Shown: positions 44,484-61,536, counted from the stretch's first letter. The stretch is 64,000 bases of DNA from a virus (IMGVR_UViG_3300031746_000001), one strand, 5' to 3'. Numbers and translations: made by a program. Notes: generated by a model from the letters alone, not told the origin.

Positions 44484-44795
44484 CTACCACTGATCGGTGA
44501 TATCGGTAAGGGCGACGATCATAACGCTGGCTCTCCGGACGGCGTCCCGGAAGTTATTCGCTATCCGGGTTACCCGCTTGACATCCACAAGGCCCCGGCC
44601 TTTCACCTGTTCGTTGTAGAGATCATTGGCGAGCTTCTTGATCTCGTCCGTGATCTTCACGAGCTTCGAGACATTCTCTGCAATCTCGGCCTGTAGCTCT
44701 TCGGGATCCCTGCTCCGGAGCCCCGCTTCCCCGGGAGAGACGGCAGACTTCAAGGTCTCCTCTGTCAATGCGACCGACTTAAGCAGGTCGTTCAT
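44484..44795 (-). CDS. Leader-bearing small protein
   Basis: True start MNDLLKSVALT at 44795 (ATGA overlap, GAGGTG RBS); coiled coil. Confidence 0.7.
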   Translation of the reverse strand: MNDLLKSVALTEETLKSAVSPGEAGLRSRDPEELQAEIAENVSKLVKITDEIKKLANDLYNEQVKGRGLVDVKRVTRIANNFRDAVRRASVMIVALTDITDQW

Positions 44796-45112
44796 TTGGT
44801 CACCTCGTTGAAAATGTCCATGAGGCCCTTCACCTGCCCGGCAAGGGTGATCCCGGACTTCATGCCCTTCCGGTGAAGCCGAGACTCCTTCTCCTTGCGG
44901 GACCTCGAGCGCATGGTGAGGCCGAGGTCGGACTTCACGACCCTCCGGGTAGCCCTGCGGGCGTCCCTGCTGAACGGGGACACAACCCTTCCTGACTGCA
45001 CCGCGACCTTCCGGTAAGGGACCCGCTTCCACTGCTTGAGATGGGTCTTCTCTCCGGAGACGACCGCAGACGTCAACGCCTGCACTCCACTCAACAAGAC
45101 TTTCATGCTCAT
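44792..45112 (-). CDS. Leader-bearing small basic protein
   Basis: MSMKVLLSGVQAL...; very Arg/Lys-rich. Confidence 0.65.
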   Translation of the reverse strand: MSMKVLLSGVQALTSAVVSGEKTHLKQWKRVPYRKVAVQSGRVVSPFSRDARRATRRVVKSDLGLTMRSRSRKEKESRLHRKGMKSGITLAGQVKGLMDIFNEVTK

Positions 45113-45591
45113 GGTATTTTCTGCTCCCCTGGCGCATCGGCATGCCGTTTAAGTTCACAAGTCCAAAACATGTGGTCACCCGTCCCCCAGTAGAACTCCG
45201 TCGGTGTGACCTTCACAATATCATACTTCGTAAATAAGGGCTGTGGTGTATTCCAAACTAACAGGATATCTCCCCGCTTCGGAAGAGGCCAGCTATTGTC
45301 CTCAATGCTCTTCCGGGGCAGGTGGGCGAGCGCATCGATCTCCCCGATCCCTCCAACCTCGTTCTCCTCCCACGACCAGGTCGGCACTTCAAGATTCCCG
45401 ATGATGTCGTAGGGTCCGGCAAAGACGAAGTCGGACTCCGTCGTGGGCTCCTGATACAGCGGGTCCTGAATCGAGGCCGCCCGATTGATCGAATAGAAGG
45501 AGATATGAAACCCGCTGAGGGCGGGAACCTCCTGGGCGACACCGTCGAACATCCTCCGATCACGTGGATTTTCAAAGAATCTATCGGCCAT
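45109..45591 (-). CDS. Head closure / neck protein (T4 gp14-like)
   Basis: Start MADRFF; E...LSG..I.FYSI......DPLYQE...PKRGDI...YDIV pattern. Confidence 0.65.
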   Translation of the reverse strand: MADRFFENPRDRRMFDGVAQEVPALSGFHISFYSINRAASIQDPLYQEPTTESDFVFAGPYDIIGNLEVPTWSWEENEVGGIGEIDALAHLPRKSIEDNSWPLPKRGDILLVWNTPQPLFTKYDIVKVTPTEFYWGTGDHMFWTCELKRHADAPGEQKIP

Positions 45592-46171
45592 GTGAAAGCA
45601 GTTCCAGGATGTGCTCGAGGTGGCTGTCAATCCCCACAGTGAAGTAAGGGCTGTCGATCGGCTTCAGGTGAACGGGGTCATCGTAAGACTGCTCCTTATC
45701 CTGCCGGATGGTCTCCCACTCCCCCGTCCCTTGAGCCTTCTCAACCTGCACGAGATAGGCGACATCGTTCAGCATCCCGAGGACCCGATTGAACTGCTCC
45801 GTGGAGGTCTCATCGGAGAGCTCCCGGGCGATCTCCAACATATCCTTCTTCGGAACGTAGTAGCGGTATCGCTTCTTGTCTGCCCGCTGAACTTCAAAGA
45901 ACGGATCGCCCGAGTCGGGCTCGATCAAACGGACGCTGAACGAATCCTCGGTCTTGAGGTGATCCCCGACTTCCTTCTGCCCACTCGCCCGTTTCTTGAG
46001 GGTCTCAATTCCCTTCGCCTTGTCGAACCGGAAATCATCGAGAAAGCTCTTAGTGAACCGCTGGCTGGGAAACCAGTATTGAGTGAGCCCGCCGTCTTTG
46101 TCCTGCAGGACGACGAACCAGCCCTTGCTGTCCGACCCGACTTCGTGAAGAGTGAGCCCTTCGGGATCCAC
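45581..46171 (-). CDS. Hypothetical protein
   Basis: 196 aa, coupled on the coding strand. Confidence 0.6.
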   Translation of the reverse strand: MDPEGLTLHEVGSDSKGWFVVLQDKDGGLTQYWFPSQRFTKSFLDDFRFDKAKGIETLKKRASGQKEVGDHLKTEDSFSVRLIEPDSGDPFFEVQRADKKRYRYYVPKKDMLEIARELSDETSTEQFNRVLGMLNDVAYLVQVEKAQGTGEWETIRQDKEQSYDDPVHLKPIDSPYFTVGIDSHLEHILELLSHGR

Positions 46172-46684
46172 TCATTTCCCCCGCTTCTCGTAGGATTCGT
46201 AGGAGATCGCTTCCAGGTTGGAATTCCCCCGAATGAACCGCTCGGCCTCAAAGCCAGTCATGATAACGGCGTCCTCGGGATCCTCCGTATAGTTACCCGG
46301 CCCCTTCGGGGTAAGCCACAGGCCCCGCCCGATCAGCCGAACCATATACTCATCCTGACCACGAAGGCGATTCCCAAAGGCATCCCTCGTCACGAGGTTC
46401 TCGAGCTTCTCATCATCCGTCACCCTCATGGCGTGGGGACGCTGTTTGATCGTGTCCAGAACCCCGAGCGTGTCGTCCACGATCTTCCTGAGATTGTCCA
46501 ACCCTAATCCTCCTCCCCCTCTACGAAACCGAACCGTGAAACCGATCCCTTGTAGATCATCATCTGCGGGCGTGTGTCCTGCTTCATCTGCCTTGTCGAC
46601 AAACCGAACAGCAGGGGCGGGGAGCTTGGCCGGGGTTTCTAGGAGCTCTCGAAGGGAGGTGAGAGCTGGAGCAATGGAACCCAT
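46172..46684 (-). CDS. Hypothetical protein
   Basis: Probable start MGSIAPALTSLRELLE (leader-like helix). Confidence 0.55.
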   Translation of the reverse strand: MGSIAPALTSLRELLETPAKLPAPAVRFVDKADEAGHTPADDDLQGIGFTVRFRRGGGGLGLDNLRKIVDDTLGVLDTIKQRPHAMRVTDDEKLENLVTRDAFGNRLRGQDEYMVRLIGRGLWLTPKGPGNYTEDPEDAVIMTGFEAERFIRGNSNLEAISYESYEKRGK

Positions 46685-46711
46685 GAAGAAGACCCCCCGC
46701 CCCAAAACTGT

Positions 46712-47056
46712 TTAGGTGATCGTAAGGTAGAAGCCCGTCATGACCAGGATGGCGATCACGAAGGACATCGTACCGGCGTAGGCATCGAGCCCCACCGTCG
46801 CGATATCACCCTGAGCCGCGATGACGGCGTCCAGGTACGTCTTGAGGGCGCCCGTCACGGTGGCGTCGATCGCCACCACGAGAGCGGCCATGTTCGCCAC
46901 GGCAACCGTGGTGTCCGGAGCCAGGTACTGCTTGACAGCCGGAACGAGATCGCCGAGACGGAAGTCCAGCGTCTCCTGCCCCACGTGGACGGCCTGGTAG
47001 GCTCCGCCTGGGGCGTATTTGCCACCGATCTGACCCTGCACTACTGTGAACGTCAT
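46712..47056 (-). CDS. Hypothetical Ala/Val/Thr-rich protein, probably structural
   Basis: Strong AAGGAGG RBS and strongly GC3-biased codons like the MCP and sheath genes. Confidence 0.65.
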   Translation of the reverse strand: MTFTVVQGQIGGKYAPGGAYQAVHVGQETLDFRLGDLVPAVKQYLAPDTTVAVANMAALVVAIDATVTGALKTYLDAVIAAQGDIATVGLDAYAGTMSFVIAILVMTGFYLTIT

Positions 47057-47080
47057 TTCATCCTCCTTTTGGTTAAGTGA

Positions 47081-47794
47081 CTACCCCGTTAAAAACGGGA
47101 TTTGTGAAGCCCTACTCAGGCTATCCTCTTCGGTCTCCTTGAGTTCTTCAGAGGATTCTTCCAACAACCTGTCGGCGTCCATCTCGACTGGACCGCCTGG
47201 CCCAGGGTACTGCTTATACTTCCCCCTGATCCTTCCGAGCATCTGCTTACATCGCGCTGTCACCCTCCGAGCGTAGAGATCAATATCTGCGGCCGCTTGA
47301 AGGTCCTCGATCTTCGTTGCCAGGATCCAGGCGTCGTAAAACAACGTGCCGATCGTCTGTGGGAGCTTCCAGGTCCGCAGAATCCTGGTCCCGGGGTCAT
47401 ACTCCCATCCGGTGCCTCCGGCGATCCGCCCGAGCGTCTCGGAGTGCTGAAGGTAGAGAACGAGAGCGGAAAACCGATGCCCCAACCTCCGGTAGTCGTG
47501 CCCGACCTGCCAGAGAACGAATCCCGGGAGATCGAACGAGAACTGACCGAGGTAATCCAAACCCGCATAGACGTTGCTCACCCCGATCGTCCCACTCGGC
47601 AGGGTATGCTCCTCATACGCCCAGTTCCCGACCGGGATTTCCAGAGACAGAACCTCCGATCCCAGCCTCGTGTTGAACCACCGCAGGGCATCCCTCAAAG
47701 CCGCCTGCCAGTGTTCCTCCTCGAGCTCGACGGCGACCTTCGTCCCGAACCCGAGCTTGGCGAATACTTCCTGCTTGAGCTCGGCCTCGGTCAT
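47081..47794 (-). CDS. Neck / head-tail adaptor protein (T4 gp13-like)
   Basis: LG...VAVEL......A..DAL..F N-terminus; A.CK.MLGRIRGKY...PGPGG.VEMDAD.L..E...E...P..TG C-terminus. Confidence 0.8.
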   Translation of the reverse strand: MTEAELKQEVFAKLGFGTKVAVELEEEHWQAALRDALRWFNTRLGSEVLSLEIPVGNWAYEEHTLPSGTIGVSNVYAGLDYLGQFSFDLPGFVLWQVGHDYRRLGHRFSALVLYLQHSETLGRIAGGTGWEYDPGTRILRTWKLPQTIGTLFYDAWILATKIEDLQAAADIDLYARRVTARCKQMLGRIRGKYKQYPGPGGPVEMDADRLLEESSEELKETEEDSLSRASQIPFLTG

Positions 47795-47815
47795 CTCTGC
47801 TGGCGCCAGCGGAGG

Positions 47816-48472
47816 TTAAACATACGCCGTACCCCGCCCGCCTTTCTTGCTGTGTGTCTTGGAGGCCACCTGGACGGGCTTCGTCCCGGGTTTGTCCGGC
47901 TTGACCGGGGAACCCGCCTTCTGACCGGGTTTGGGAGGCACGGGAGCCTCTTTCTTACCCCCCTGGGCTTCACCAGGGGCTTCTGGTGGGGTTTTGGCCC
48001 CCGACCCGGCCTCCGACCCCTCCGTCCCGGCCTTCCCCTCCTTTGGGGGCTTTCCCCCCTCAGCCTTCGGCGCCTCCGGAGCATGCGTGTGGAGTGGCGT
48101 TTCCACGGCCTCGGTCATCGCTGACTGTAGGCCATCCCCGACCCCTAAAACGACTTCCTGCGGAGGTTCGGACGCAGGCGACATGGCGGGAGCCGGAGTT
48201 ACCGGAGGCGCAGGCTGAGGTATAGGCGACGCCCCAGAGGAGCCTATCCCTTCGACAGGTCCAGGAACCGGCTCGTCGGATGCCGGAACCTGTTGCACAG
48301 GAGGTGGAGGTGCCGACAAGGGATTGCCGGAGGCGTCGCATTCTATCAAACGGTCATCCGGAGGGATCGCATAGATCGCCCAGTGGTCGCCTTCGATGAC
48401 CATGCCGGAGGAGAACATATTCCCCCCGCAGGAGATCTGGCCGTATTTTGAATTCTTCTTCCAGTATCTCAT
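47816..48472 (-). CDS. Pro/Ala/Gly-rich, largely disordered protein
   Basis: Short globular N-terminus followed by about 160 aa of low complexity and a basic tail. Confidence 0.65.
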   Translation of the reverse strand: MRYWKKNSKYGQISCGGNMFSSGMVIEGDHWAIYAIPPDDRLIECDASGNPLSAPPPPVQQVPASDEPVPGPVEGIGSSGASPIPQPAPPVTPAPAMSPASEPPQEVVLGVGDGLQSAMTEAVETPLHTHAPEAPKAEGGKPPKEGKAGTEGSEAGSGAKTPPEAPGEAQGGKKEAPVPPKPGQKAGSPVKPDKPGTKPVQVASKTHSKKGGRGTAYV

Positions 48473-48475
48473 CCC

Positions 48476-48793
48476 CTAAACCCTTTCTATCACGTCGGGA
48501 AGAATGTCTTTCACGGCATCGGCAATCGCCTGGATGTCGGATCGTGGAATCTTCTCCGCGACCCGATCCCCGATCCGTCTCGACTTTCCACGGAGCTCGT
48601 CCACGCCCTCGAGATGATAGCCGATCCCCGAGGCGATCCATATCTTCACGGAGTCGGGAGAGGCGAGCCACCGCAAGATAGAGTTAATATCCACGGCACT
48701 CTGGACCGGATTCTCCTTCACGGGATACCCCAGAAACCTTGCCCCTCCGACCATCTGATCGATCGAAGTTACTGCCAAGAGAAGTTCATTCAT
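48476..48793 (-). CDS. Leader-bearing small protein
   Basis: MNELLLAVTSI; GGAGG RBS. Confidence 0.7.
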   Translation of the reverse strand: MNELLLAVTSIDQMVGGARFLGYPVKENPVQSAVDINSILRWLASPDSVKIWIASGIGYHLEGVDELRGKSRRIGDRVAEKIPRSDIQAIADAVKDILPDVIERV

Positions 48794-48801
48794 AAGTCCT
48801 C

Positions 48802-49077
48802 CTATGCCGTCATTGAGGCCCGAACAAGGTCCAGAAGCAGGGACTGGTTATTCGCCAGATCATGGAGCTTCTGCCGAGTCCCTTCCAGGTACTGCACGTC
48901 TATAAGTGCTACCAACCGATGGGATAATTTCACGCTCACCTTCTGATCAACCCCGGCGAACCTGAGATCGTTGGAAATGCCTCCCGAAAGCATCCCCACG
49001 ATGTTGTGAAAGTCTATTCCCCGAAGGTAGTGCTCGACCTTCTGAACAACCCTTGCTTCCTCCGGTGTCATGTCCAT
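48802..49077 (-). CDS. Hypothetical small protein
   Basis: 91 aa, GAGGG RBS; no clear leader. Confidence 0.6.
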   Translation of the reverse strand: MDMTPEEARVVQKVEHYLRGIDFHNIVGMLSGGISNDLRFAGVDQKVSVKLSHRLVALIDVQYLEGTRQKLHDLANNQSLLLDLVRASMTA

Positions 49078-49086
49078 AGCACCCTC

Positions 49087-49494
49087 TCATTGGGATTTGC
49101 TCCGAAACAGCTTCTTGATCTGAGCGTCGGTGTAGTGCTTGACCTTATACATCGCGAGGTCATCGAGGGCCCCGTTGATCGAATGGTAGTTCTCGTTCTC
49201 GAGGATCTCCCACACCCGCTCCGAAAGGGAGCTAGGCTTAACCCCGAGCCTCCTAACGGCAACCTCTACGTTCTCCTTATAACCGTCCCAGTCCCCCCAG
49301 GGCCCCGAGGCGTCGTCCCAACCCTTGCTCCGCCAGATGTCCTCGTCGATCTTCATGAGCTCGGTCGCCAGCTTCTTGTCCCGCTGTGGCGTATCCTTCA
49401 GCCGGGCGTAAAACGGAGACTCCCCGAGGTCGTCCGTTGTGCGGACGCTTAGGAGCCCAGCAAGGGACCGAATCGCTTCAAGCAGGGTTCTCAT
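49087..49494 (-). CDS. Leader-bearing small protein
   Basis: MRTLLEAIRSLAGLLSVR. Confidence 0.7.
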   Translation of the reverse strand: MRTLLEAIRSLAGLLSVRTTDDLGESPFYARLKDTPQRDKKLATELMKIDEDIWRSKGWDDASGPWGDWDGYKENVEVAVRRLGVKPSSLSERVWEILENENYHSINGALDDLAMYKVKHYTDAQIKKLFRSKSQ

Positions 49495-49497
49495 GGT

Positions 49498-49938
49498 CTA
49501 CATGAAGAACTTCGTGAACTCGGGATCCTCGAGGGCGTTCGTATAGGCTCCCTCTTCCTCCGAGATCCGGCGAACTTCCTTCGGGTTGATCGCCTGCTTC
49601 TTGATGATCTGGATGGCCTGCTCTTTGGTCATGTTCTCGTCTTCCAGCATGTCACCGATGTGCCTGGCATCTCTGAAGTCCCCGTAGAGGACGATCGCCA
49701 GGTCAGAGTAACCCTTCTGCCGGAGGGCTTCGATCCACGCATCGGCGAGCTCTGGGTTCGTGGCGAGGGCCGAGTGACCCCAGAAGCCGAACCCTCCCGA
49801 GATGTAACGGCCAGCCCGCAGGAACTCCTTCGTGGAGAGCTTGTTCTTGATGTCCCAGATCGACCTCTCCCGAGCGTCAAAGAGCTCCTCCCCGCACATC
49901 GAAGCCAGAAGCTGAACGGCTCGAGTTTCCTTTTTCAT
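49498..49938 (-). CDS. Leader-bearing small protein (CGE subclass)
   Basis: MKKETRAVQLLASMCGEELFDAR. Confidence 0.7.
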   Translation of the reverse strand: MKKETRAVQLLASMCGEELFDARERSIWDIKNKLSTKEFLRAGRYISGGFGFWGHSALATNPELADAWIEALRQKGYSDLAIVLYGDFRDARHIGDMLEDENMTKEQAIQIIKKQAINPKEVRRISEEEGAYTNALEDPEFTKFFM

Positions 49939-49939
49939 G

Positions 49940-51085
49940 TCAGTCCTCCTTGTGGTGCGGTTTGTCGCCCCGGCTTTTCATCCAGTAGGAGTTATGCGAG
50001 AAAACCCCTGCGGATATGGCGAACGTATGAATTCCCTTAACAGCGACATCATACATCGGAATGATGGTATCGAGAAAATCGATCTTAACTATAAAGTGGT
50101 TCTGAGCCTCTCGAGCTTCCCGGGCCCTTCGCTTTCCTTCGCCGACCTTTTTCCCATGATCCGAACCATAGTTTCTCCGAAGATTTGCCTGCCTAATCTT
50201 CTCTATCGCATCCGCAGACTGAGAAGTTCCGAACGGACGACCGCCAAGCAAACCACTCCTGTAAGACTGATCCCTGAGAAGTCCCGACCGACGTTCTCGC
50301 TCTTCGGGAGACATTTCGGCCCATTGCTTCAACGTAGTCTCTTTGGACTTTTTCGTATGCAACCTTCTGAATTCCGGGTCCGATCTCCACTTTTTATCCC
50401 ACGCTAACCGCATCGCCTGAACCTTGTCCTTTCCATGATGCTTATTATGGAAATCCCGCAACATCCAAACTAAGTTTTCAGGGCGGTTATCTCGAGGGTC
50501 TTCATTGAGATGGTGCCCGACATGCTCGGCGGAGGGACAGCCTAAACCCATCTCCCGCATTACAGCCCAATGCGTAAGGCCATAGCACCCGAGGCCGGGA
50601 TGGTAAACCATCTCATGCCCCACAATTCCACGAGCCATTCTTGATTTTGACACACTGCTTGTCGTCCTGAATGGCATCAGAGAATCATCTACGTTCAGAG
50701 CCTTCGTTTCGACGAAAGACCCATCACGTTTGACCCAGCGGTGCTCCGGAGAACAGGTTAGAATCTCACCGTTATCAAGCGCAATTTCCACGGCAGGACG
50801 CACCCCGACATACTTTACCCGGGCAAGACCGGGAACGACTATCCCTGTCGGGTCAACGGAGTAAAGCCAGAACTCGGCATTAGCCTCTGCAAGTGCATGC
50901 AGTGACCTGATTTTTCCGTCCAAACATGGAACCTCCGTATCACCTCCTAGACACAAAGCGAAGGGGTTGTCGATGTCCTTGTGCTTCTTCATCGCCCGGA
51001 CGGTCCCGCCCCAGCCCGGGGGAGACACGTTCACGAGCTTGAAGCTCTGCGAGAGATCGACGACGGCGGTCAATAATTCCTTCAT
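49940..51085 (-). CDS. Leader-bearing 60-aa protein interrupted by an intein
   Basis: N-extein MKELLTAVVDL...VSPPGWGGTVRAMKKHKDIDNPFAL (44 aa); C-extein SYWMKSRGDKPHHKED (16 aa). Confidence 0.85.
   Translation of the reverse strand: MKELLTAVVDLSQSFKLVNVSPPGWGGTVRAMKKHKDIDNPFALCLGGDTEVPCLDGKIRSLHALAEANAEFWLYSVDPTGIVVPGLARVKYVGVRPAVEIALDNGEILTCSPEHRWVKRDGSFVETKALNVDDSLMPFRTTSSVSKSRMARGIVGHEMVYHPGLGCYGLTHWAVMREMGLGCPSAEHVGHHLNEDPRDNRPENLVWMLRDFHNKHHGKDKVQAMRLAWDKKWRSDPEFRRLHTKKSKETTLKQWAEMSPEERERRSGLLRDQSYRSGLLGGRPFGTSQSADAIEKIRQANLRRNYGSDHGKKVGEGKRRAREAREAQNHFIVKIDFLDTIIPMYDVAVKGIHTFAISAGVFSHNSYWMKSRGDKPHHKED
49991..50953 (-). mobile_element. Intein with HNH endonuclease
   Basis: Begins CLGGDTEVPCLDG; block B LDNGEILTCSPEHRW; HNH motif HHLNEDPRDNRPENL......HNKHH; ends MYDVAV.GIHTFAISAGVFSHN followed by +1 Ser. 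Confidence 0.93.
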
Positions 51086-51094
51086 GATATCCTC

Positions 51095-51724
51095 CTACGC
51101 GGCCTTCAGCCCAACCTGCCGGGCGTATTCTTTCCAGGTATCCCCGTCCACCAGAATGTCGGCCACATCGTTGTTGGCAATCATGTCCCCGTACTCGTCC
51201 TGCAGGGTCCCGAGCATCTCTTCCACGATCCCCTGGATGAACTCCGTCAGGTCGGCCCCGCCGAGGAACGGAGGGACGCAGGAGTAGCCCCGGGTCGAGA
51301 AGGCGATGCTCACAGGAGAACGACGATCGTTCAGTGCTTTCTGGACCTCTGGATCGTTCGGGTCTGCCCCGGCCTCCTTGAGAAAGAGCCTGACGTCCTT
51401 GACCACTGCGTTCTTGAGCACGAGGCGCTCGGGCCTGAAGTAGTAGTCCGGGCTGTCTCCCTCGGGATCCTTCCAGCTCATCTTCGGGCTCACCCAGAGG
51501 ACATCCTCACATTGGATCCCGTAATCCGACAGGCGGCTCCGGAAGTGCGCCTTCAGGTTGCGATCGAAGTCCCCGTAGACCCGATCTCTGCGGAAGAGCT
51601 CCATCATCATGAACTGCGTGGACAGCTCGAGGTCCTGAAAATCCTTCTCCCGGTTGGGATCGAGATAGAGCCCCAGGAAGATCCCGCTGGTTAAGGTATT
51701 CACAGCTTCGAGCAAGTCCCTCAC
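51095..51724 (-). CDS. Leader-bearing protein
   Basis: MRDLLEAVNTLTSG; GTGA overlap. Confidence 0.7.
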   Translation of the reverse strand: MRDLLEAVNTLTSGIFLGLYLDPNREKDFQDLELSTQFMMMELFRRDRVYGDFDRNLKAHFRSRLSDYGIQCEDVLWVSPKMSWKDPEGDSPDYYFRPERLVLKNAVVKDVRLFLKEAGADPNDPEVQKALNDRRSPVSIAFSTRGYSCVPPFLGGADLTEFIQGIVEEMLGTLQDEYGDMIANNDVADILVDGDTWKEYARQVGLKAA

Positions 51725-52092
51725 GGCTCCCTTAAGCCAAAGGGGTCTTCCTCTGCGAGATCACGGACGACCTCCTGCAATTTATCCGTAATCAATCCCA
51801 TGCCCTTCTGGATGTCGGAATTGTCCCGCAGGTACTGAAAGAGCACGTCCACGACCTGTGCAACGACTTTGGAATCTCCGGAATGCCCGACCGCATCCTT
51901 GATGAACTTCAGCACGTACTCGGACAGCTTCTCGGGGTCGCCCAAGACTCCCCCGTTCGCCACCTGAAGGGCAGTCTTCTGAAGGACAGCGGGATCCACG
52001 CCTTTGTAGCCCAAGACCCTGGTCCCTGTGGACAAGATCGGTTCCCCGCACAACTCGGCAAGGATTAAAACGGCTTTATTCTCTTGGCTCAT
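51721..52092 (-). CDS. Leader-bearing small protein (CGE subclass)
   Basis: True start MSQENKAVLILAELCGE at 52092, after AAAGGA. Confidence 0.7.
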   Translation of the reverse strand: MSQENKAVLILAELCGEPILSTGTRVLGYKGVDPAVLQKTALQVANGGVLGDPEKLSEYVLKFIKDAVGHSGDSKVVAQVVDVLFQYLRDNSDIQKGMGLITDKLQEVVRDLAEEDPFGLREP

Positions 52093-52093
52093 G

Positions 52094-52591
52094 CTATCCT
52101 TTCTCGCCCACGGCGGTGTAGATCGCCTCGTAGACCGCATCCGCATCGTCCCGGTCTTTGGCGGCATATTCAAAAGCCCCGACGATGATATTATAGGCCT
52201 TCGATCCATCCGAAAGGGTCTCCTCCACATACTGCAGGTTCGGCTTGCCCCGATCGTCCATCAGGGTCTTCATGAGAACCTTCGTGTTCCTAAGACCACT
52301 CTCCAACGGCTTCCCCTCCCGAGAGCTCCCCATCGGCCAACCCCTCCTCTCGAGGATCTGTGCAATCTCGGAAGTGACATCTCGGCCCTTCAGAGCCTTC
52401 TGCCGGAGCCGAACAAAGTCCCAGGCTATCTCATTGGAGACCTTCCCTTCTTTCTTGAAATGGTCTGCCATCTCGGAATCCGAGGACGCCTCATCGTTGA
52501 CCAGGATGGCGGCGACCCAATTTACTAAATCGTCCGAGGGCTTCACCGCGGCCTCGAGCTCCTGCAGGGCTTTGATTACTTGGCTTCTCAT
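52094..52591 (-). CDS. Small protein with leader-like helix
   Basis: Probable start MRSQVIKALQEL (52591; 52597 is an alternative). Confidence 0.65.
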   Translation of the reverse strand: MRSQVIKALQELEAAVKPSDDLVNWVAAILVNDEASSDSEMADHFKKEGKVSNEIAWDFVRLRQKALKGRDVTSEIAQILERRGWPMGSSREGKPLESGLRNTKVLMKTLMDDRGKPNLQYVEETLSDGSKAYNIIVGAFEYAAKDRDDADAVYEAIYTAVGEKG

Positions 52592-52598
52592 GGTCATC

Positions 52599-53902: not shown

Positions 53903-53909
53903 GATCCTC

Positions 53910-54263
53910 CTATCGGGATAACGCCTTTTTCTGGTAATACTCGGCCTTCTTCGAGAACTGATTCCACATGGCCTCCATGTTCCGCCCGAGGCTTTCGATA
54001 TCCGCCAAGACCTTCTTTGCCAGGGGATCGTTGTCCCACGCCCACCACAGGATTCCCGCAACCTCCGGAGCGGCGTCTCCCCCGATATCTTTGAAGAGTA
54101 TCTCGCTGAAGTAGCCCTCCATCATCCAATCCTTGAACCGACGAGCCTCCTCAGTAAAGGTTGCCAGCTCCCTCTGGATCTCCGGGATGGAATGATCGTC
54201 ACCCCGGGCGGAGACCACCAGACCACGATCGATGCCCTGTGTAGCTTCCAGAAGGGCTCTCAC
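53910..54263 (-). CDS. Leader-bearing small protein
   Basis: GTG start at 54263 (GTGA overlap): MRALLEATQGIDRGLVVSAR. Confidence 0.7.
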   Translation of the reverse strand: MRALLEATQGIDRGLVVSARGDDHSIPEIQRELATFTEEARRFKDWMMEGYFSEILFKDIGGDAAPEVAGILWWAWDNDPLAKKVLADIESLGRNMEAMWNQFSKKAEYYQKKALSR

Positions 54264-54523
54264 ACCTTCCTCCCCAAGTCCCCGTTGATCTGACCGATCA
54301 GCCTCGACGTGATCCGGGTGTGCTTGTCCTCGTCGGCGAAGTTCTCGATCATGTCGCCGTAGGGATCGATCTTCTCGAGTTGGTTGAGAAGCTTGTCGAT
54401 CTGGACGAGGAGGTCCCTGCACTTCTCGGCCCGGGCGGCGAAGTCTCCCCGCAACGTATCCGTTGACCGGGCGGAGACCAGTCCCGTCTCGACGGCCTGC
54501 ATAGCTTCTAGTAAGGTTCTCAT
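54260..54523 (-). CDS. Leader-bearing small protein
   Basis: MRTLLEAMQAVETGLVSAR. Confidence 0.7.
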   Translation of the reverse strand: MRTLLEAMQAVETGLVSARSTDTLRGDFAARAEKCRDLLVQIDKLLNQLEKIDPYGDMIENFADEDKHTRITSRLIGQINGDLGRKV

Positions 54524-54837
54524 CTGAGGCTCCTTTCGATTGACCGCAGAGACGTCACCAGATCGTTCATCGGCCCGCTTTCCGAGCTCTTAACGTAGGT
54601 GTCGACATCCACACCCCCGCACTTCGGGCACCCGTCATTCGCCGCCCGCTCGGCAGAAGCTGTCGTGTAGAACTTCTTCCCGCACTCCTGGCACATGAAC
54701 AAGGGCTCTCCGGCAGACTGGACGACCTGCTTGGTCTGGACCGGAACCACTGCGGCAGACACCGGATCGTGGGCGGCTATTCCAGGGAACAGAATTTGCT
54801 CCAACCGTCCAAAGGCTTCTTTGAATTCCTTGTCCAT
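54520..54837 (-). CDS. Zinc-ribbon protein with a leader-like C-terminus
   Basis: CQECGKKF...CPKCGG; ends MNDLVTSLRSIERSLR. Confidence 0.7.
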   Translation of the reverse strand: MDKEFKEAFGRLEQILFPGIAAHDPVSAAVVPVQTKQVVQSAGEPLFMCQECGKKFYTTASAERAANDGCPKCGGVDVDTYVKSSESGPMNDLVTSLRSIERSLR

Positions 54838-55715
54838 CAGCCCTCCCTCGGCTTGATAATCCCGCCCGCTTCTTCGAACATCTTTCTCGGGTTCTTGGCG
54901 ATCTGCTTGGCGTCCTCCAATTCGCCCTTAAGAAACTCCTTGATCCTGCGGAGCTGTCCGTTCTCCCCTCCCGTCTGACGGTTCAGGATATGGTAGAACA
55001 CGTCGACCAAACCCGACCATCCGATATCACCCTTCGATGGGGGCATCAGCTCATCGGCAATCTTTCCTACGGCATCGTCGTAGGCATCCTTGATGGCATC
55101 GACCATATCCGGATCGGTTAAGGCTTTGGCGTAGCCCTCAGCGTAGTTCCCGAGAGCCTTCACCTCATCGTCGGAGTCCAGCCAGATATCGCCCCGGGCC
55201 GAGTTCAGCCTCCGACCACGCATGATCCGGGAGTCCTCCAAGTCATCATCGTCCTGCTCTTCGATCCCCTCCACAAACCGCAGGAAGTCCCTCTTGATCC
55301 GGTCGCGGTTCTTGTCGTCGATGATATACTTCTCTTTGCGGAGGTTCTCGGCAATGAATTCAAGTTGCCATGAATCCCTGCCAACCGTCTTGTGGGCGAA
55401 GTATTTCTCCTGATCGGGGATCGTGATCTTATACCGTTCCCACATCTCATCATCCCCAAGTTCATGCTCGAGATAGACGTAGCTGTTGGGACCCGTGATA
55501 TCCTCCGGAACGACCCCGCCCGTGGAGACCGTAAGAGTATCCCCCTTCTTGACCCATTGATTCTCATCATACATCACCACGAAGGTGATGCCCCCGAACT
55601 GGTCGTAGAAGGAATGCGTCCACCTCCGGGCGGTGTCATCGTCTACGCCACCACGTGCAGACTGCAGGCCCACCTGGGAGGCTACGTCCTTGACCGCTTG
55701 AAGCAGGTTATTCAT
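54837..55715 (-). CDS. Leader-bearing two-segment protein
   Basis: MNNLLQAVKDVASQVGLQSAR; an internal LNSAR precedes the second segment. Confidence 0.7.
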   Translation of the reverse strand: MNNLLQAVKDVASQVGLQSARGGVDDDTARRWTHSFYDQFGGITFVVMYDENQWVKKGDTLTVSTGGVVPEDITGPNSYVYLEHELGDDEMWERYKITIPDQEKYFAHKTVGRDSWQLEFIAENLRKEKYIIDDKNRDRIKRDFLRFVEGIEEQDDDDLEDSRIMRGRRLNSARGDIWLDSDDEVKALGNYAEGYAKALTDPDMVDAIKDAYDDAVGKIADELMPPSKGDIGWSGLVDVFYHILNRQTGGENGQLRRIKEFLKGELEDAKQIAKNPRKMFEEAGGIIKPREG

Positions 55716-55716
55716 C

Positions 55717-55950
55717 TCAATTCACCCCCGCGATTTTGGTAACGAACTTGGCGATCCGGTCGAGTTCTTCGACGTTCCTCTCAAGCTCCCTTTTTATGCT
55801 ACTATCCTTCTTGAAATGGTCCTGAAGGCCAATGAGCCCGCCCGCCGCCGCTTCGGTATTGTCAAAGGCGTCCTGCGCCTTTCTTAAAAAATCAGCGTCC
55901 TCGTCCATCTTGGACTGCAGGGCTTCAACCGCAGACAGAAGGTTTCTCAT
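55717..55950 (-). CDS. Leader-bearing small helical protein
   Basis: MRNLLSAVEALQSK. Confidence 0.7.
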   Translation of the reverse strand: MRNLLSAVEALQSKMDEDADFLRKAQDAFDNTEAAAGGLIGLQDHFKKDSSIKRELERNVEELDRIAKFVTKIAGVN

Positions 55951-56333
55951 CCCTTCCTCCTTTCGATGTCTTTCATGATCGACTCGGCCCGATCCGAGAA
56001 CTCCTTCGCATGGTTAGCGAAGCCTGCGGCCTCGTCCTTGAGCTGGGCGATCAGGATAAGCTCATCGTCCGAGGCCTTCCGGGCTACGTTCGCCCCGCCG
56101 ATGTAGCCGGACGTATTTCCCCGGAGAGCTTCGACATCATAATGCCTTTCCGGTTTTGCGAACGTGAAGGACGAGGTAAGACGCCCTGACCGGACGGCGT
56201 CCTTCTTCTCATTGTCCCGCTTCTCCATCCGCTTTCGGGTCTCGTCGTCGGGCACGTCCTTCGTCGGGGAGGCGGGGGACATCGGCGCTAGGGAAGGCAT
56301 GGCGGCATTGACCAACCGAATAAGTTCTTTCAT
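55947..56333 (-). CDS. Leader-bearing small protein
   Basis: MKELIRLVNAA; internal RLTSSF. Confidence 0.65.
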   Translation of the reverse strand: MKELIRLVNAAMPSLAPMSPASPTKDVPDDETRKRMEKRDNEKKDAVRSGRLTSSFTFAKPERHYDVEALRGNTSGYIGGANVARKASDDELILIAQLKDEAAGFANHAKEFSDRAESIMKDIERRKG

Positions 56334-56566
56334 GTCAAATCTCCATATCTGGATGTGAATTGAAACTCCCCAGTCTTCCCGAGCTCCTGAAACATCTCGA
56401 GAATTTCCTCAAGCTCGCTCTTGGAATCTACTCTCGACGGGACCCGGGAGGCATTCGGATATCCGGCGACCTTCCGATCCTGCTCATCCTCCGAACGCTT
56501 CACGGTGCGGGCTTGGAACCGGAGCTCAGGTCCAACCTGTGCGATCAGTCGAAGCAGTTCGTTCAC
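56330..56566 (-). CDS. Leader-bearing small protein
   Basis: MNELLRLIAQVGPELRFQAR. Confidence 0.65.
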   Translation of the reverse strand: MNELLRLIAQVGPELRFQARTVKRSEDEQDRKVAGYPNASRVPSRVDSKSELEEILEMFQELGKTGEFQFTSRYGDLT

Positions 56567-56567
56567 C

Positions 56568-56909
56568 CTATAACCTCAACGTCAAAGAAAAGATATCTCG
56601 GGATGCCTTCTTGAACCTCTCGGGATCGATTAGCTGTCCCATCTCAGCAAGGGCATCCAAAGCCTGTCCGGTCTGGGAAAGTATGTCCTTAATGCTCTCA
56701 AGCATATCCGCTCCGGCCATCTCGCGCCTCTTAGGGTTTGGATCAGAGGCCTTCTTGACGGCTTCCAAAACATGATCAGCGAAGTGAGCTATGAGGTTAG
56801 CGCGACCCCTAAGTTCATCGAGTGCACCTAATGGATAACGATCCTCACGGTTCCATACGGCCATCAAAGAGCCTTCAACCAGAACAAGAGAAGATAGAAG
56901 CTCCCTCAT
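56568..56909 (-). CDS. Leader-bearing small protein
   Basis: MRELLSSLVLV. Confidence 0.65.
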   Translation of the reverse strand: MRELLSSLVLVEGSLMAVWNREDRYPLGALDELRGRANLIAHFADHVLEAVKKASDPNPKRREMAGADMLESIKDILSQTGQALDALAEMGQLIDPERFKKASRDIFSLTLRL

Positions 56910-57226
56910 CGGCGTGGCGACACTCCCTGAGTAGTGGACTCCCCGGGCTTGCCTGTTCGCATCATCACATCCCCTCGAGTAAGAAACTCCCCGTTCTTCA
57001 TGATAAACCCGTCGACGAAGCCCGCCTCATCGGGATCCTCCATCAGATCGTAATACCGATCCACCACGCTGGCGGGTAACCGGGCTAACAGCCGAGCATG
57101 GGTCTCCCCCGGCCTGCCCTGGTAGACCCGACCGTCTATCTCGAAGGCCACAGCGTGAACCTGCTTCGCCGGAACCAGATCGACCGCCGAGTAAACCCTC
57201 CGTGTGCATATGAGGAGACAATTCAA
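56906..57226 (-). CDS. Small protein with GF...GEFLTR motif
   Basis: MNCLLICTRRVYSAV; H...DGFIMKNGEFLTR. Confidence 0.6.
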   Translation of the reverse strand: MNCLLICTRRVYSAVDLVPAKQVHAVAFEIDGRVYQGRPGETHARLLARLPASVVDRYYDLMEDPDEAGFVDGFIMKNGEFLTRGDVMMRTGKPGESTTQGVSPRR

Positions 57227-57489
57227 TCCAATCCCGCTTGTTTGAGCCTGGTGTAGTAGTCGGGGTGATCTTTGAGATGCGCCAGGGCGATATGCCCCGT
57301 GGTCACGAGATCCCCGCCGGTGACGTCGTAGTGTTCAAGCTCGTCCGCAAGCCCCATCCGGAACTGCTCCGGATCGACGTCGAAGTCCGGGGCGATATCC
57401 TCAAGCACCTGCTGGGCGATCGCCTGCGATATCTCCTGGTTGATCAGAACCCTTCCTATGCGATTAACGGAGGCCAGAAGCAGGTCCAT
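57223..57489 (-). CDS. DUF5661-like small protein
   Basis: EQFRMGLADELEH...IALAHLKDHPDYYTRLK; start MDLLLASV at 57489 (TGATG overlap). Confidence 0.75.
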   Translation of the reverse strand: MDLLLASVNRIGRVLINQEISQAIAQQVLEDIAPDFDVDPEQFRMGLADELEHYDVTGGDLVTTGHIALAHLKDHPDYYTRLKQAGLD

Positions 57490-57917
57490 CAGTCCCACCA
57501 GAGGCGGATCTCGTTGTTCTCGGCGTTAACCTCGTCGGCCCCGACTTTCCGGGAGTCTTCGATCATCTCGGCAATTTCCTCGAGGGGTCTCTTCCCGCCA
57601 CGGACGTAAACGCACGGCGATCCCTCCCGAGCAAGCTGGACCTCGAGCTTGGGTTCGATCCGCTTCAGGGCTCGGATGCTGTTCGGGGTGAACTCGTTGT
57701 ATGAGTCGATCCCCGCATGTTCGAACTCCCGAGCGGCGTCATCGATGGAAAGCCATCTCGAGTCGCGCCACTCGTAGACCTCCTTCGTGCGCTTGAGATC
57801 GCCCCGCCCCATCCCGTAGACGTCCTTGAGGCTTGTGGCGCTCGAGAGCCGGACCCTCTTGGGCTCTCCAGCCAGGGACTCAAGGCAGGAGTTAATGACG
57901 TTCAAAAGATAGTCCAT
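57489..57917 (-). CDS. Leader-bearing small protein
   Basis: MDYLLNVINSC; AREGSPCVYV...ADEV...IRLWWD; AAGGAGG RBS. Confidence 0.7.
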   Translation of the reverse strand: MDYLLNVINSCLESLAGEPKRVRLSSATSLKDVYGMGRGDLKRTKEVYEWRDSRWLSIDDAAREFEHAGIDSYNEFTPNSIRALKRIEPKLEVQLAREGSPCVYVRGGKRPLEEIAEMIEDSRKVGADEVNAENNEIRLWWD

Positions 57918-57926
57918 GTGGCCTCC

Positions 57927-58334
57927 TTATAAGGTGACACCCGCCCGCTTCGCCATCGAGACGGGATTCTGTGCGGTAGCCTTGCAAGCCGAGATGAGCC
58001 GATCGAGGACGCCATAGAGTGCGGCCTCCATCCCTCCCTGAGTATGCTCGGCCTGCCAATCGACTATGTTCTCTGTGATCGCCAGGATATCGACATCGTC
58101 TCTAAGCCCGGCCTTCTTCATGGCTCCCTCCCACCGCTCCCCGATCGCCTCCATAAGCATCGTATAGAAGTCGCCCTTCTCGGCTTCTATTTTAGTCGCC
58201 ATCTCTGTGGCGAGCTTCGCGACGTTATCCGACATTTCCTGATCGAATCCCGATCCCCGCTGGGACTGCACGGGCGGTCTGGCATTCAGAAAACCCTCGA
58301 GCTCCGATATCGCATTCATCAGAACCTTACTCAT
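57927..58334 (-). CDS. Leader-bearing small helical protein (first gene of the array)
   Basis: True start MSKVLMNAISELEGFLNAR at 58334, after AGGAGG. Confidence 0.7.
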   Translation of the reverse strand: MSKVLMNAISELEGFLNARPPVQSQRGSGFDQEMSDNVAKLATEMATKIEAEKGDFYTMLMEAIGERWEGAMKKAGLRDDVDILAITENIVDWQAEHTQGGMEAALYGVLDRLISACKATAQNPVSMAKRAGVTL

Positions 58335-58358
58335 GAGCCCTCCTATAAAGACAAGAAT

Positions 58359-58390: not shown

Positions 58391-58414
58391 AAGCATGATG
58401 ATGATTTCCTTAGA

Positions 58415-58472
58415 CTGGCGGGGCCGTGTTACAGGCCCCTTCTTATCGCAGAGCTTTGGACGGCCCCGCCAG
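58415..58472 (-). promoter_or_regulatory. GC-rich 13-bp inverted repeat / structured RNA element after the MCP gene
   Basis: CTGGCGGGGCCGT (58415-58427) and ACGGCCCCGCCAG (58460-58472) pair perfectly around a 32-nt loop. Confidence 0.6.
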
Positions 58473-58505
58473 GTTTCCTTGTGAGTTCTCTCTAGTCCCT
58501 CGTGA

Positions 58506-59951
58506 TTACATGTTGAGGACTGTGACGAGGGCGTAGTACTCGGTATAGATGAGCTTCGTGGCATACCGAGTACGGAGACCCTTCTTCAACCCGAAGTCCG
58601 TCGGGTCCATGAACGTCGGGGTCATCTGGATCGGGATATACGGGGCGTAAACGTAGCCCGCATCCATCCAGTAATCCCCCTTCAGGCCCAGCAGAACCTT
58701 GGTCGATGTGAAGTAGGGGTCTACGTAGACCGCCCACTTGGACTGCAGAGTCCCGGCGAAGTAGATCCCGGGTCTCCGAGGCGGGGTCACTGGGACGCCC
58801 GTCTCCGGGACGGAACCGACCGCTGGCCGGAACAGCTGGTGCGTGGCGAACTGGTCGAACAGGGCCGCCACGTCGGGCGAGGTCACGATCCAGTTCGCGG
58901 GCGAACGGAGCGTCCGCTTGTGGATCGCATTCGACGCCGTCGACAAGACGGTTAGGATCGACCGGATGTGATCGATGTCCGAGATGCCGGACGGCACGGT
59001 GCGGTCCCAGTTATACTTCACGACCGCATCGACGTGGGTGTAGATGTCGTTGATGATCTCGCGGTCGACTTCCAAGCCGATCTGGCTGGAAACCCCGGCC
59101 ACGAGTTCCGACTCCACGTCGATTCCGTGCAGGGCCCGCAGGTCTTCTGCGGACTCCGTGGACCAGACGGCCTTGAGCTTGCGGCTCCGCGCCCGAACCT
59201 CGGCGATCTCCACGGCCACGTCCACTTCCGGGACCGCCGTGTTGAGCTCGCTGTTGTATTCGTAGAACGCGGTGACCACGCCCACCTTCTGCGAGGTCAA
59301 AGACGGAATGACCATGGCGAAGGCGCCGTTGGTGTAATTGATCGACCCCGAGGCTCCGACTGCGTCACCGACCAGGGTGCCCGACCCGTTGGCGTCGGTG
59401 TAGCGGATCGTCCGGGGGGACGTCTCGTTGGTCACGACGGTGATGATCGGCCCTGCGGCTCCGGCGTCGGTCGCCTTCTTCACAGGGGTGAAATCCAGCG
59501 AAGCGGAGTAGGTCAGGTCCCCGCCGCCTCCGGCTGGGGTCGTCCCGACTGCCTCGTTGCTGATCGTCTCCGACGAGTAATACATGTCGAAGTTTGCGAT
59601 CATCTCCGTGCCCTTCGTGGTGGCGCCCTTCTCGGTCCCGTATTTGACCTTGAAGTAGGACACGGCGCCCACGGGGGCATTCATGGGCTGGACGGACACA
59701 ATCTCGTTGGAGATCAGGAACGGCCAGACCCTCCGAACCACCGGGAACACGTGCTTCGTGTAGTAGCCCGCATCTCCGGTCGTCGTGCTCCCGGCGTTAG
59801 CCAGGTAGATCAAGTGGTCCATCTCGTTCTCGAGGAGCCGGGACACGCAGAACTTCCGGTACGGCTCCTTGATCGAGCGAGTGAGACGGTGCCACTTGCT
59901 CATCAAAGCCTGGGCTTCGGGAGTTTTCCAGGCTGTCAGCAACTGTTCCAT
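58506..59951 (-). CDS. Major capsid protein (T4 gp23-like)
   Basis: LLEN, FPVVRRV, VSVQPMNAPVG, RSRKLKAVWSTESAEDLRALHGIDVESEL......EVDREII, ANWIVTSP, YAPYIP, DF..KKGLRTRY. Confidence 0.97.
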   Translation of the reverse strand: MEQLLTAWKTPEAQALMSKWHRLTRSIKEPYRKFCVSRLLENEMDHLIYLANAGSTTTGDAGYYTKHVFPVVRRVWPFLISNEIVSVQPMNAPVGAVSYFKVKYGTEKGATTKGTEMIANFDMYYSSETISNEAVGTTPAGGGGDLTYSASLDFTPVKKATDAGAAGPIITVVTNETSPRTIRYTDANGSGTLVGDAVGASGSINYTNGAFAMVIPSLTSQKVGVVTAFYEYNSELNTAVPEVDVAVEIAEVRARSRKLKAVWSTESAEDLRALHGIDVESELVAGVSSQIGLEVDREIINDIYTHVDAVVKYNWDRTVPSGISDIDHIRSILTVLSTASNAIHKRTLRSPANWIVTSPDVAALFDQFATHQLFRPAVGSVPETGVPVTPPRRPGIYFAGTLQSKWAVYVDPYFTSTKVLLGLKGDYWMDAGYVYAPYIPIQMTPTFMDPTDFGLKKGLRTRYATKLIYTEYYALVTVLNM

Positions 59952-60012
59952 GCTCTAACTCCTTATGTGTGTGCTTGTTGTGTGACGGTATCGGCCATCT
60001 TAGATAGCCGAA

Positions 60013-61536
60013 TTACTCTTCGCCCGACAATTGGGCGATTCTTTCCATCGACATCCCCGTGAGCTGTTCGATTGCCGTCCCCCGCCCGGTTCCCCGGGAT
60101 TCGAGAACGACGTCCTCGTTCAGCAACGTGGCTCCTCTCCGCATGCCCTGTTGGACACGCTGAAGAAGGGCCCCGGGGGAGTCCGGGGAACGGTCCACCC
60201 ACTCCCTTAACTGCACGGCTGTGGAGATGTCGCCGGATTCGACGAGCATCCCCAGTTTGTTTCGAAGGTTGATTACGTCAGACCGATGAGAGATCTGCCT
60301 CTCAGCTTCCAGCATTAACTGCACCCTCTTCGCACGAGCAAGGGCAGACGTGGCGCTTTCCTTCTCGATGGCCACCTGGTTCCTGAGAACATCCACCTCC
60401 CCACGAGTGATCTTCAAGTCCTTCGTCAGCTTGGCCACCTCGGACGTAAGCTCGGCTTCCTTCTCGTCGGCCTCCCCCACGCCCCGCTTGATGACCTCGA
60501 GCTGTTCCTGGGCTTTCGCGATCACGCCTTTGGCCTGCTCCAACTCGGCACTCTTGCCCGTGAGCTCGACCTCCAGCTTTTTCTTGTCATCGGCGGCTCC
60601 GGCCTTCTCCTTCTCGTCCACCTCGTCGGTCTTCTCGATCCCCATCGCTTCGGCGACCTGCTGGGCGGTCTTGGTCAGCTCGTTGATATCAGCGAATCTC
60701 CCCAGGTCACCCAGGGCGGCCATGAGAGCCCCGGCCTTCGGGCTCCGGCCATATTGCTGATTCAGGAAGAGCTTGAATCCCAGGTTCTTATACTCGTCGC
60801 GATAGGTGTTCGCGAGCTTGGTCAGGCGATCGACTTCTGCCTTCAGCGTGGCAACAGCTTTGTCCTTATCCGCTTCCAGCACGACCGCCTCCCCGACAGG
60901 CTTGATTTGAGTCAGCTTAACGCTTGCCGCGACCTCCTCGTGGAGCATCTCTTTCAGCTTGCCCGTAATCTCCTCGACCAGCTTTTTCCGAAGTTCGTCA
61001 TTTCCCATCAACATCTCCTCGTTAAAGATGATCTCTTCTGGCCAGGTAGAATCAGCGGGCTCGGAAACTGCATCAAACGTCAGGAGCCTGAAATCGTCGT
61101 TCACGTTAAATGTGTCACCCTCCTGCGCCAACGACCCGAATCCCCGGCTCGAGATCCCCACCTTCGCACCCGACTTAAGGATGCTCCGGAGGTTGTTCCC
61201 TCGCTCGGTATCCAGGACTTCGGCCTCTCCGATGACCTTCCCGCCGTCACAGCGGAGGTCCGTAATGATGTGGCTGACCTCGTTCAGGCGGGTCCGGCCA
61301 TCGGCAGGGTGGTCCAGGCATCCGAAGAGCTTCCGATCTTTCATCAACGGTCTTAGTCTCGAGATCTCACGCTCCCAGAGCGCATGGGGGTACACTCGGT
61401 TGTTCTTGTTCGGATTGTCCGCCAGAGCGAACTCCCCTCGCATGATCACCTTGCGAGCCCCACCGCCAGGCGCATCCTGCTCGACTAACTGCAAGCCTGG
61501 GGCGTCGTAGACTGTGGTTAAGAGTAACTTCTCCAT
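60013..61536 (-). CDS. Prohead protease (T4 gp21-like) fused to a coiled-coil scaffold domain
   Basis: N.N.RVYP, GCLDHP, VSHIITDL, GISSRGFGSL, FDAVSEP; followed by about 330 aa of charged coiled coil. Confidence 0.93.
   Translation of the reverse strand: MEKLLLTTVYDAPGLQLVEQDAPGGGARKVIMRGEFALADNPNKNNRVYPHALWEREISRLRPLMKDRKLFGCLDHPADGRTRLNEVSHIITDLRCDGGKVIGEAEVLDTERGNNLRSILKSGAKVGISSRGFGSLAQEGDTFNVNDDFRLLTFDAVSEPADSTWPEEIIFNEEMLMGNDELRKKLVEEITGKLKEMLHEEVAASVKLTQIKPVGEAVVLEADKDKAVATLKAEVDRLTKLANTYRDEYKNLGFKLFLNQQYGRSPKAGALMAALGDLGRFADINELTKTAQQVAEAMGIEKTDEVDEKEKAGAADDKKKLEVELTGKSAELEQAKGVIAKAQEQLEVIKRGVGEADEKEAELTSEVAKLTKDLKITRGEVDVLRNQVAIEKESATSALARAKRVQLMLEAERQISHRSDVINLRNKLGMLVESGDISTAVQLREWVDRSPDSPGALLQRVQQGMRRGATLLNEDVVLESRGTGRGTAIEQLTGMSMERIAQLSGEE

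Follow-up and report, generated by a model that had tools for sequence, protein, structure and literature searches.

Asparagine and serine at predicted prohead-protease sites of an uncultured T4-superfamily phage

Introduction

The prohead protease of phage T4, gp21, cuts after (L/I)-x-E, and all of the T4 sites that have been measured have Glu before the cut (PMC9026906). The proteases of phiKZ, 201phi2-1 and SPN3US cut after (S/A/G)-x-E (PMC9026906, PMC10052503). These enzymes (gp175 in phiKZ, gp245 in SPN3US) are diverged relatives of gp21 that remove the N-terminal propeptides of many head-internal or ejection proteins (PMC10052503, PMC9026906); they vary at P3, the third residue before the cut, and always have Glu at P1, the residue just before it. 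Our literature search found no gp21-type protease with a measured P1 other than Glu. Here, we analyse a stretch of 64,000 nucleotides from an uncultured virus (IMGVR_UViG_3300031746_000001), hereafter the window, whose minus strand carries a phage head module at 44.4-63.3 kb. In this module, the predicted maturation site of the capsid protein and the ends of most leaders in a large array of small genes have Ser or Asn at the position of P1.

The protease of the module belongs to the same family as gp21 (S77) and shares with it the catalytic His, Ser and Asp, a hydrophobic P3, and an N-terminal site of the L-x-E self-cleavage type. Its candidate substrates are also those of T4: the propeptide of the major capsid protein (MCP), the scaffold, and small proteins with an N-terminal tag. 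The module differs from that of T4 by the predicted Ser/Asn P1 of the MCP and of most leaders, by the fusion of the protease to the scaffold, and by the lack of a gp24-type vertex paralogue, the MCP being the only Gp23-family gene in a complete relative genome. The tag recalls the capsid-targeting sequence (CTS) of the T4 proteins IPI-III and Alt, because it is a short element on unrelated small proteins encoded beside head genes, ends at a protease-type site, and is kept when payloads are swapped between related genomes. Unlike the CTS (about 10 residues, 4-5 genes), it has 15-19 residues, is present in about 20 genes and is a predicted amphipathic helix; it has no sequence similarity to the CTS, and its role in packaging is putative. 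Unlike in the phiKZ group, the predicted change concerns P1. Herpesvirus assemblin (S21) cuts at (V/L/I)-x-A↓S, where the arrow marks the known or candidate scissile bond. Of the known specificities, this one comes nearest to h-x-S↓A (h, hydrophobic), its P3 being hydrophobic and its P1 small and uncharged, but assemblin has no detectable sequence relationship to the window protease and differs at P1 (Ala rather than Ser/Asn) and at P1', the residue after the cut (Ser rather than Ala).

We propose, with modest confidence, that the S77 protease of this lineage also cuts after Ser and Asn, with a predicted P1 of Ser, Asn or Glu. Glu sites probably still work.

Results

The head module and its relatives

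The window holds the head-assembly module of an uncultured T4-superfamily phage of about 160 kb. The genes follow each other on the minus strand in the order S77 protease-scaffold fusion, Gp23-type MCP, and then about 20 small genes sharing a leader (Table 1). The nearest genome is an IMG/VR record (L001/G001) of 160,139 bp, with direct terminal repeats and rated complete, whose MCP is 91% identical to that of the window; named or deposited phage records match at 33% at best. Searches of 5.8 billion proteins with the MCP and the protease revealed no further members of the lineage, only the window and L001 exceeding 50% full-length identity, and local matches to the protease domain reached 55% identity. 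The MCP was compared with 119 database proteins (41-49% identity) and with 65 non-redundant loci from metagenomic viral contigs, two overlapping sets that comprise about 140 distinct members.

Predicted maturation site of the capsid protein

The MCP is a member of the Gp23 family (Pfam PF07068, 233 bits), and its propeptide aligns with those of the relatives up to the column of the predicted maturation site, where the residue is Asn (Ser in L001) and not Glu. A first-pass annotation, made from the sequence of the window alone, had remarked on this missing Glu, and the comparison with relatives bears it out. The window reads L-A-N52↓A53, whereas the aligned column is Glu in 65/65 metagenomic relatives and the propeptide ends in L-x-E-(E/D)-T in 119/119 database homologues. 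The sole close relative, L001, has L-A-S52↓A53, with the P3 Leu and the P1' Ala retained in both genomes. Twelve MCP columns have at least 85% Glu in the relatives: the window has Glu in 9 of them, Gln and Asp in two, and Asn at the maturation site alone. When the protease-scaffold protein is included, 6 of the 16 conserved-Glu columns are replaced in the window, 3 of them by Asn, and all three Asn replacements occur in an h-x-E context (P = 0.0035 under a BLOSUM62-based expectation).

In an AlphaFold2 (AF2) model, the last helix of the propeptide (residues 30-53) ends at the MCP site and a coil (54-57) follows, in a part of the model that has low confidence. The T4 MCP is unaligned at the exact site, its mature N-arm starting about 14 residues further out, and the argument for homology of the site therefore rests on the relatives of 41-49% identity. 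In the maximum-likelihood tree of the MCP, the window and L001 are sister to a Glu-type lineage (P0002, P0006 and P0007; 99/98 support), which indicates that Glu is ancestral at the site. These results support the view that the lineage swapped an invariant P1 Glu of the MCP for Asn or Ser, the same two residues that end most leaders.

Elsewhere in the window, an open reading frame (ORF) of 58 amino acids (39544..39720, minus strand) is similar to the N-arm of the mature MCP. Its sequence is P-V-E-S↓A-T-T-T-G directly before the shared TTTG...F-P-x-V-x-V-R-R-V, with candidate Glu and Ser sites both present.

The leader array

The leaders are 15-19 residues long and have the consensus M-x-(E/D/N)-L-L-x-A-V-x-x-L-x-x-x-h15. 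Their conservation is periodic (positions 4, 5, 8, 11, 15 and 17) on otherwise unrelated payloads, and position 15 is hydrophobic in 17/17 leaders of the main class. The first-pass annotation had described a recurring motif at the end of the leaders and predicted its enrichment over shuffled sequence. The genes and motif instances that it quoted are present, with one correction (LMA-AR is LMA↓VW), and the enrichment holds. The motif h-x-[S/N], with Ser or Asn at positions 15-20, was found in 11/17 main-class leaders, against 2.5 expected from its frequency of 0.026 per residue in the mature regions of these proteins (binomial P = 4e-6) and a mean of 4.0 ± 1.7 when leader residues 2-30 are shuffled (P = 4e-4), although both P values overstate independence because the leaders are paralogous. 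For the longer form h-x-[SN]-[AG], the density over residues 1-25 is 5.6-fold that of the mature parts. Of the 20 leaders, 7 have Ser at the P1 position, 3-4 have Asn and 4 have Glu (M-D-E17, two C-G-E17 and A-G-E18), with 5 leaders lacking an assignment. A second leader subclass, ..AV-x-L-L-A-x-x-C-G-E17, occurs at 49498..49938 and 51721..52092 (minus strand) and has Glu where the main class has Ser or Asn.

The leader resembles a CTS in that 20 unrelated proteins share an N-terminal tag and are encoded together between the MCP and adaptor genes. A profile of the leader gave 17 matches in G001, all on the plus strand at 44.5-58 kb and confined to the syntenic block, and the other strand had no match with a comparable score. 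The payloads showed no mutual similarity, and no homologues in the relatives save one domain match in L018 and the matches of an intein and its HNH domain. Alignment of the acidic proteins encoded after the MCP revealed no real homology, a BLASTP comparison of the L001 genes upstream of the portal with L011 gave no match, and the alignment of a 308-residue head protein showed no conserved cleavage motif. The suggestion of the first-pass annotation that some cargo genes encode mini-polyproteins is not supported by the counts, which are at chance level: there are 56 internal motifs in the mature parts, compared with 47.6 ± 5.8 (P = 0.09), and a single strict internal h-x-[SN]-A-R, compared with 0.32 expected (P = 0.28).

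Comparison with G001 and structure prediction both delimit the leader. In the gene whose leader ends in V-V-S18↓A19, homology to G001 stops at position 54208, inside the Ala19 codon right after V-V-S18, and the payloads beyond this point are unrelated. In the example cargo protein of Table 1, an AF2 single-sequence model (mean predicted local distance difference test score, pLDDT, of 78) has a helix at residues 2-17, a coil at 18-21, and a second helix at 22-52. The boundary of the swap and the end of the helix together indicate that the motif marks the end of a separable helical module. Such a module fits a removable targeting peptide, and it also fits a targeting helix that is never cleaved. 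Whole leader-gene cassettes have also been gained or lost between the two genomes, with breakpoints at start codons (window 56568..56909; G001 45381..45743).

The 10-kb array is specific to the lineage of the window, since only one gene separates MCP from adaptor in the sister locus L092, and one to a few do so in other relatives. Some Glu-type relatives have leader-like N-termini that end in h-x-E at positions 14-16, which are short similarities on payloads that are not homologous. For example, L077:5014 reads ..DSLDRLSE↓RY where the window gene 53902 reads ..DSLRKVLVLS↓RF; further cases are L077:6296 (compare window gene 57917) and L065:12949. A different shared N-terminus, M-R-E/N-Q-Y-L-x-E, is found in two adjacent small genes downstream of the head module of a 157-kb relative (L018:19413-20171) and may represent an independent leader family.

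Two genes of the array have unusual structures. The gene at 49940..51085 (minus strand) encodes a leader-tagged protein of 60 amino acids that is interrupted by an intein of about 975 bp with an HNH endonuclease (49984..50958), and L001 has an intein-free copy of it (60 amino acids, G001 52082..52264). An ORF of 105 amino acids with a Cys-x2-Cys...Cys-x2-Cys pattern (54520..54837, minus strand) has a leader-like C-terminus (MNDLVTSLRSIERSLR, followed by a stop) and no payload after it.

The protease-scaffold protein

The protease domain occupies the first ~170 residues of the 507-residue protein, and the remainder is a coiled-coil scaffold. The domain belongs to Peptidase_S77 (PF03420, 61.1 bits for a cut-off of 27, E = 1.3e-16), matches the head maturation proteases of PHROG 207 (E = 1e-42), and aligns to the structure of T4 gp21 (5JBL, E = 6e-10), in which the active site is filled by the N-terminus of gp21. 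S77 enzymes have a His/Ser/Asp catalytic triad (PMC5694885). The corresponding residues are His76 and Ser129, which align with T4 His85 and Ser140, and Asp155, which is invariant in 58 relatives.

Four columns of the protease-scaffold protein have at least 85% Glu in the relatives, namely the sites of E19, Glu73, N172 and N259. In T4 gp21, the nine N-terminal residues block the catalytic centre and are self-cleaved at LIE9 (PMC9958956). The retained L-V-E19 of the window corresponds in position to this self-activation site, LIE9↓T. The N172 site, where the protease domain ends, is ambiguous, since the next residue completes an h-x-E motif, F-N-E173↓E. The N259 site, in the scaffold, has no Glu nearby, and FLT↓G or FLD↓S is found there in the sister lineage. 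In addition, a column with 72% Glu in the relatives (LAE↓R) aligns adjacent to K-L-A-N243↓T of the window. At the end of the protease domain, the protease of the relatives L015/L018 reads YPEFSNAN↓SEDSE where others have h-h-x-E↓E, and the MCP of the same relative keeps L-T-E↓E.

The scaffold part (338 residues) contains 16 h-x-E motifs (4.7 per 100 residues) and 11 h-x-[SN] motifs (3.3 per 100), and L-V-E433↓S is kept. The window is inside the range of 57 relatives (4.9 ± 1.1 and 2.7 ± 0.9 per 100, respectively), which led us to reject a wholesale swap of h-x-E for h-x-[SN] in the scaffold. The persistence of L-x-E motifs in this region had been pointed out in the first-pass annotation, which spoke of an altered or broadened specificity. 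Together, the conservation of E19, the ordinary density of h-x-E in the scaffold, and the four Glu leaders point to broadening and not to a switch.

The GCLDHP motif and the search for a specificity determinant

Around its catalytic His, the protease reads GCLDHP, and GE[LIM]DHP is present in 66 of the 70 relatives with a readable motif. The motif is thus as unusual as the first-pass annotation held it to be, but we rejected it as a marker of the new specificity, because Glu is kept at the MCP site in three other groups whose proteases lack that residue: L076 (GHLNHP), L077 (GMLEHP) and the sister lineage (GTLDHP). The MCPs of L076 and L077 have I/L-G-E↓D. Those of the sister lineage (P0002, P0006 and P0007, with proteases P0124-126) have L-x-E↓D, and VVVE↓E is found after the protease domain.

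Glu73 (61318..61320) was lost together with an Arg that is 95% conserved (Arg86, 61279..61281) and stands 13 residues later, 14 after the Gly of the motif. The residues at 73/86 are C/E in the window and T/E, H/E, M/K, A/N, H/Q or L/G elsewhere, with joint loss in 7/7 of the other proteases that lack Glu73 and neither residue missing without the other. Since L076 and L077 lie elsewhere in the MCP tree than the window and its sister lineage, the pair was lost at least twice. This suggests that Glu73 and Arg86 behave like an internal ion pair near the catalytic His, and not like a determinant of P1. Among the other lineage-specific residues of the protease, Asn43, Asn146 and Ala156 are shared with the Glu-specific T4 enzyme; the rest are Ser158 and Trp165, the latter with a one-residue deletion. 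The co-variation between Glu loss and protease residues that had been anticipated did not emerge from the alignment of homologues, in which no substitution could be attributed to the change.

Table 1. Location of the main features of the head module (positions in the window; arrows, candidate scissile bonds)
Feature	Position	Strand	Basis or comparison
Prohead protease (S77, gp21-type) fused to coiled-coil scaffold, 507 aa	60013..61536	-	Pfam PF03420, PHROG 207
Major capsid protein (MCP), Gp23 family, 481 aa	58506..59951	-	Pfam PF07068, E = 1e-68
Array of ~22 small genes, 20 with common N-terminal leader	44484..58334	-	
Head-tail adaptor gene	47081..47794		
Predicted MCP maturation site, L50-A-N52↓A53	59793..59804	-	Aligned column Glu in relatives
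L-L-E41↓N42, MCP propeptide	59826..59837	-	E41 and N42 invariant across family alignment
L17-V-E19↓Q20, retained Glu-type site, protease N-terminus	61477..61488	-	Glu in 93% of relatives
GCLDHP, residues 72-77	61306..61323	-	Cys73 for Glu of GE[LIM]DHP; column-86 Arg of relatives replaced by Glu86
I-F-N172↓E, end of protease domain	61018..61029	-	Relatives (V/F)-F-x-E↓E, 90% Glu
F-L-N259↓Q (GFKLFLN↓Q), scaffold domain	60757..60768	-	Relatives GYKFYLE↓R / (F/Y)-(Y/H/F)-L-E↓R, 93% Glu
Leader with GTG start, ending V-V-S18↓A19	54210..54263	-	blastn, window vs G001
Cargo gene taken as example (87 aa); its leader ends in L-V-S17↓A-R	54260..54523	-	AF2 model

Discussion

Our study revealed h-x-[SN] motifs that are enriched at a fixed position of the leaders, and lineage-specific replacements of Glu by Asn or Ser at conserved sites. 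If these are cleavage sites, a single gp21-type protease, fused to the scaffold, would recognise a hydrophobic P3, any residue and then P1, as T4 gp21 does, and would accept Ser or Asn in addition to Glu. It would remove the 52-residue propeptide of the MCP at L-A-N52↓A53, leaving a mature N-terminus AGSTTTG. The expected N-terminal peptide is AGSTTTGDAGYYTK, preceded by Asn (Ser in L001). The same enzyme would remove an amphipathic-helix leader of 16-19 residues from some 20 small, unrelated proteins whose genes stand between those of the MCP and the head adaptor, and the leader would act like the CTS of T4. The scissile bonds, S77 as the cutting enzyme and the packaging of the tagged proteins are what we infer from the sequences in this model.

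Several observations weigh against a broadened P1. Only two genomes carry the change, which makes it a single evolutionary event. The densities of both motifs in the scaffold are ordinary, a Glu stands one residue after N172, and the N259 column is Thr or Asp in a sister lineage whose MCP keeps Glu. The sites of the leaders and of the MCP are both at a predicted helix end followed by a short coil, and Ser and Asn are common helix-capping residues, so that the position at the leader end could be structural. The enrichment was measured on paralogous leaders, which inflates its statistics. Finally, no substitution of the protease can be attributed to a change of P1, the Cys73/Glu86 pair being paralleled in lineages that keep Glu.

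One alternative is a protease that is still strictly Glu-specific. The MCP, its primary site lost, would then be trimmed at the upstream L-L-E41↓N42, leaving 11 extra residues and the N-terminal peptide NEMDHLIYLANAGSTTTGDAGYYTK; the leaders would be permanent or cut only at Glu, and Ser/Asn17 would be a helix cap or a hinge. The invariance of E41-N42 in the MCP family agrees with this scenario, as do the persistence of L-V-E19, L-V-E433 and the 16 scaffold h-x-E motifs at the density of the relatives, the Glu at position 17/18 of four leaders, the lack of an identifiable change in the pocket, and the location of the sites at helix ends, where Ser/Asn caps are common. Yet, such an enzyme could not cut the leaders, at least four in number, in which residues 4-20 contain no Glu. 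Strict Glu specificity also fits poorly with the replacement of the MCP Glu by Asn in one genome and by Ser in the other, exactly the residues that end the leaders, with the P3 Leu kept. The same can be said of the three replacements of a conserved Glu by Asn, and of the boundary of the payload swap, which falls at S↓A. We regard a Glu-only protease as possible, although rather unlikely.

It is improbable that the motif has no function at all, with the Ser/Asn of the leaders inherited from one duplicated ancestor and the changes in the MCP and scaffold resulting from neutral drift along a long branch. The paralogy of the leaders is clear, the branch that leads to the lineage is indeed long (0.71 changes per column), and loss of Glu from the FYLE site of the scaffold also occurred in the sister lineage. 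However, drift would have replaced an MCP Glu that is invariant in about 140 distinct relatives, while 9 of the 11 other conserved Glu were kept, and the periodic conservation of leaders borne by unrelated payloads argues for selection. A second protease, encoded by the host or by an unrecognised phage gene and cutting the Ser/Asn sites while S77 still cuts after Glu, would account for the coexistence of both types of sites in a phage where most genes lack an assigned function, but we find it slightly less probable still, because a single S77 gene is present in the complete relative genome, where S78, ClpP, S49 and Trypsin_2 gave no match (in a search that was not exhaustive), host proteases do not normally reach the inside of proheads, and the Ser/Asn sites occupy positions homologous to those of h-x-E sites, with the hydrophobic P3 retained, a pattern expected of the same enzyme.

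The stem of a single phage lineage may have seen both a widening of the S77 P1 pocket, from Glu to Ser/Asn, and the origin of the cargo array of about 20 genes and 10 kb, a scenario that we find evenly balanced. A bacterial CBASS (cyclic oligonucleotide-based antiphage signalling system) sensor detects T4 gp21 by means of a loop with L-x-E sites (PMC12991175). A change in protease specificity may thus bear on the conflict between phage and host through sensing of this type, a link that is speculative here because cutting after Glu is probably retained.

The rule that prohead proteases cut after Glu serves to predict which proteins are processed and packaged in new phages, and the Asn/Ser of the capsid protein in this lineage suggests that it can fail. 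The lineage and its Glu-type sister, which are about 32% identical over the whole protease-scaffold protein, provide a natural pair to study the determinants of P1. The motif also flags about 20 candidate proteins for delivery by the capsid. If our interpretation is true, one could read from the sequence of an uncultured phage which proteins it packages and presumably injects, and the specificity of S77 proteases would be evolutionarily labile instead of fixed on Glu.

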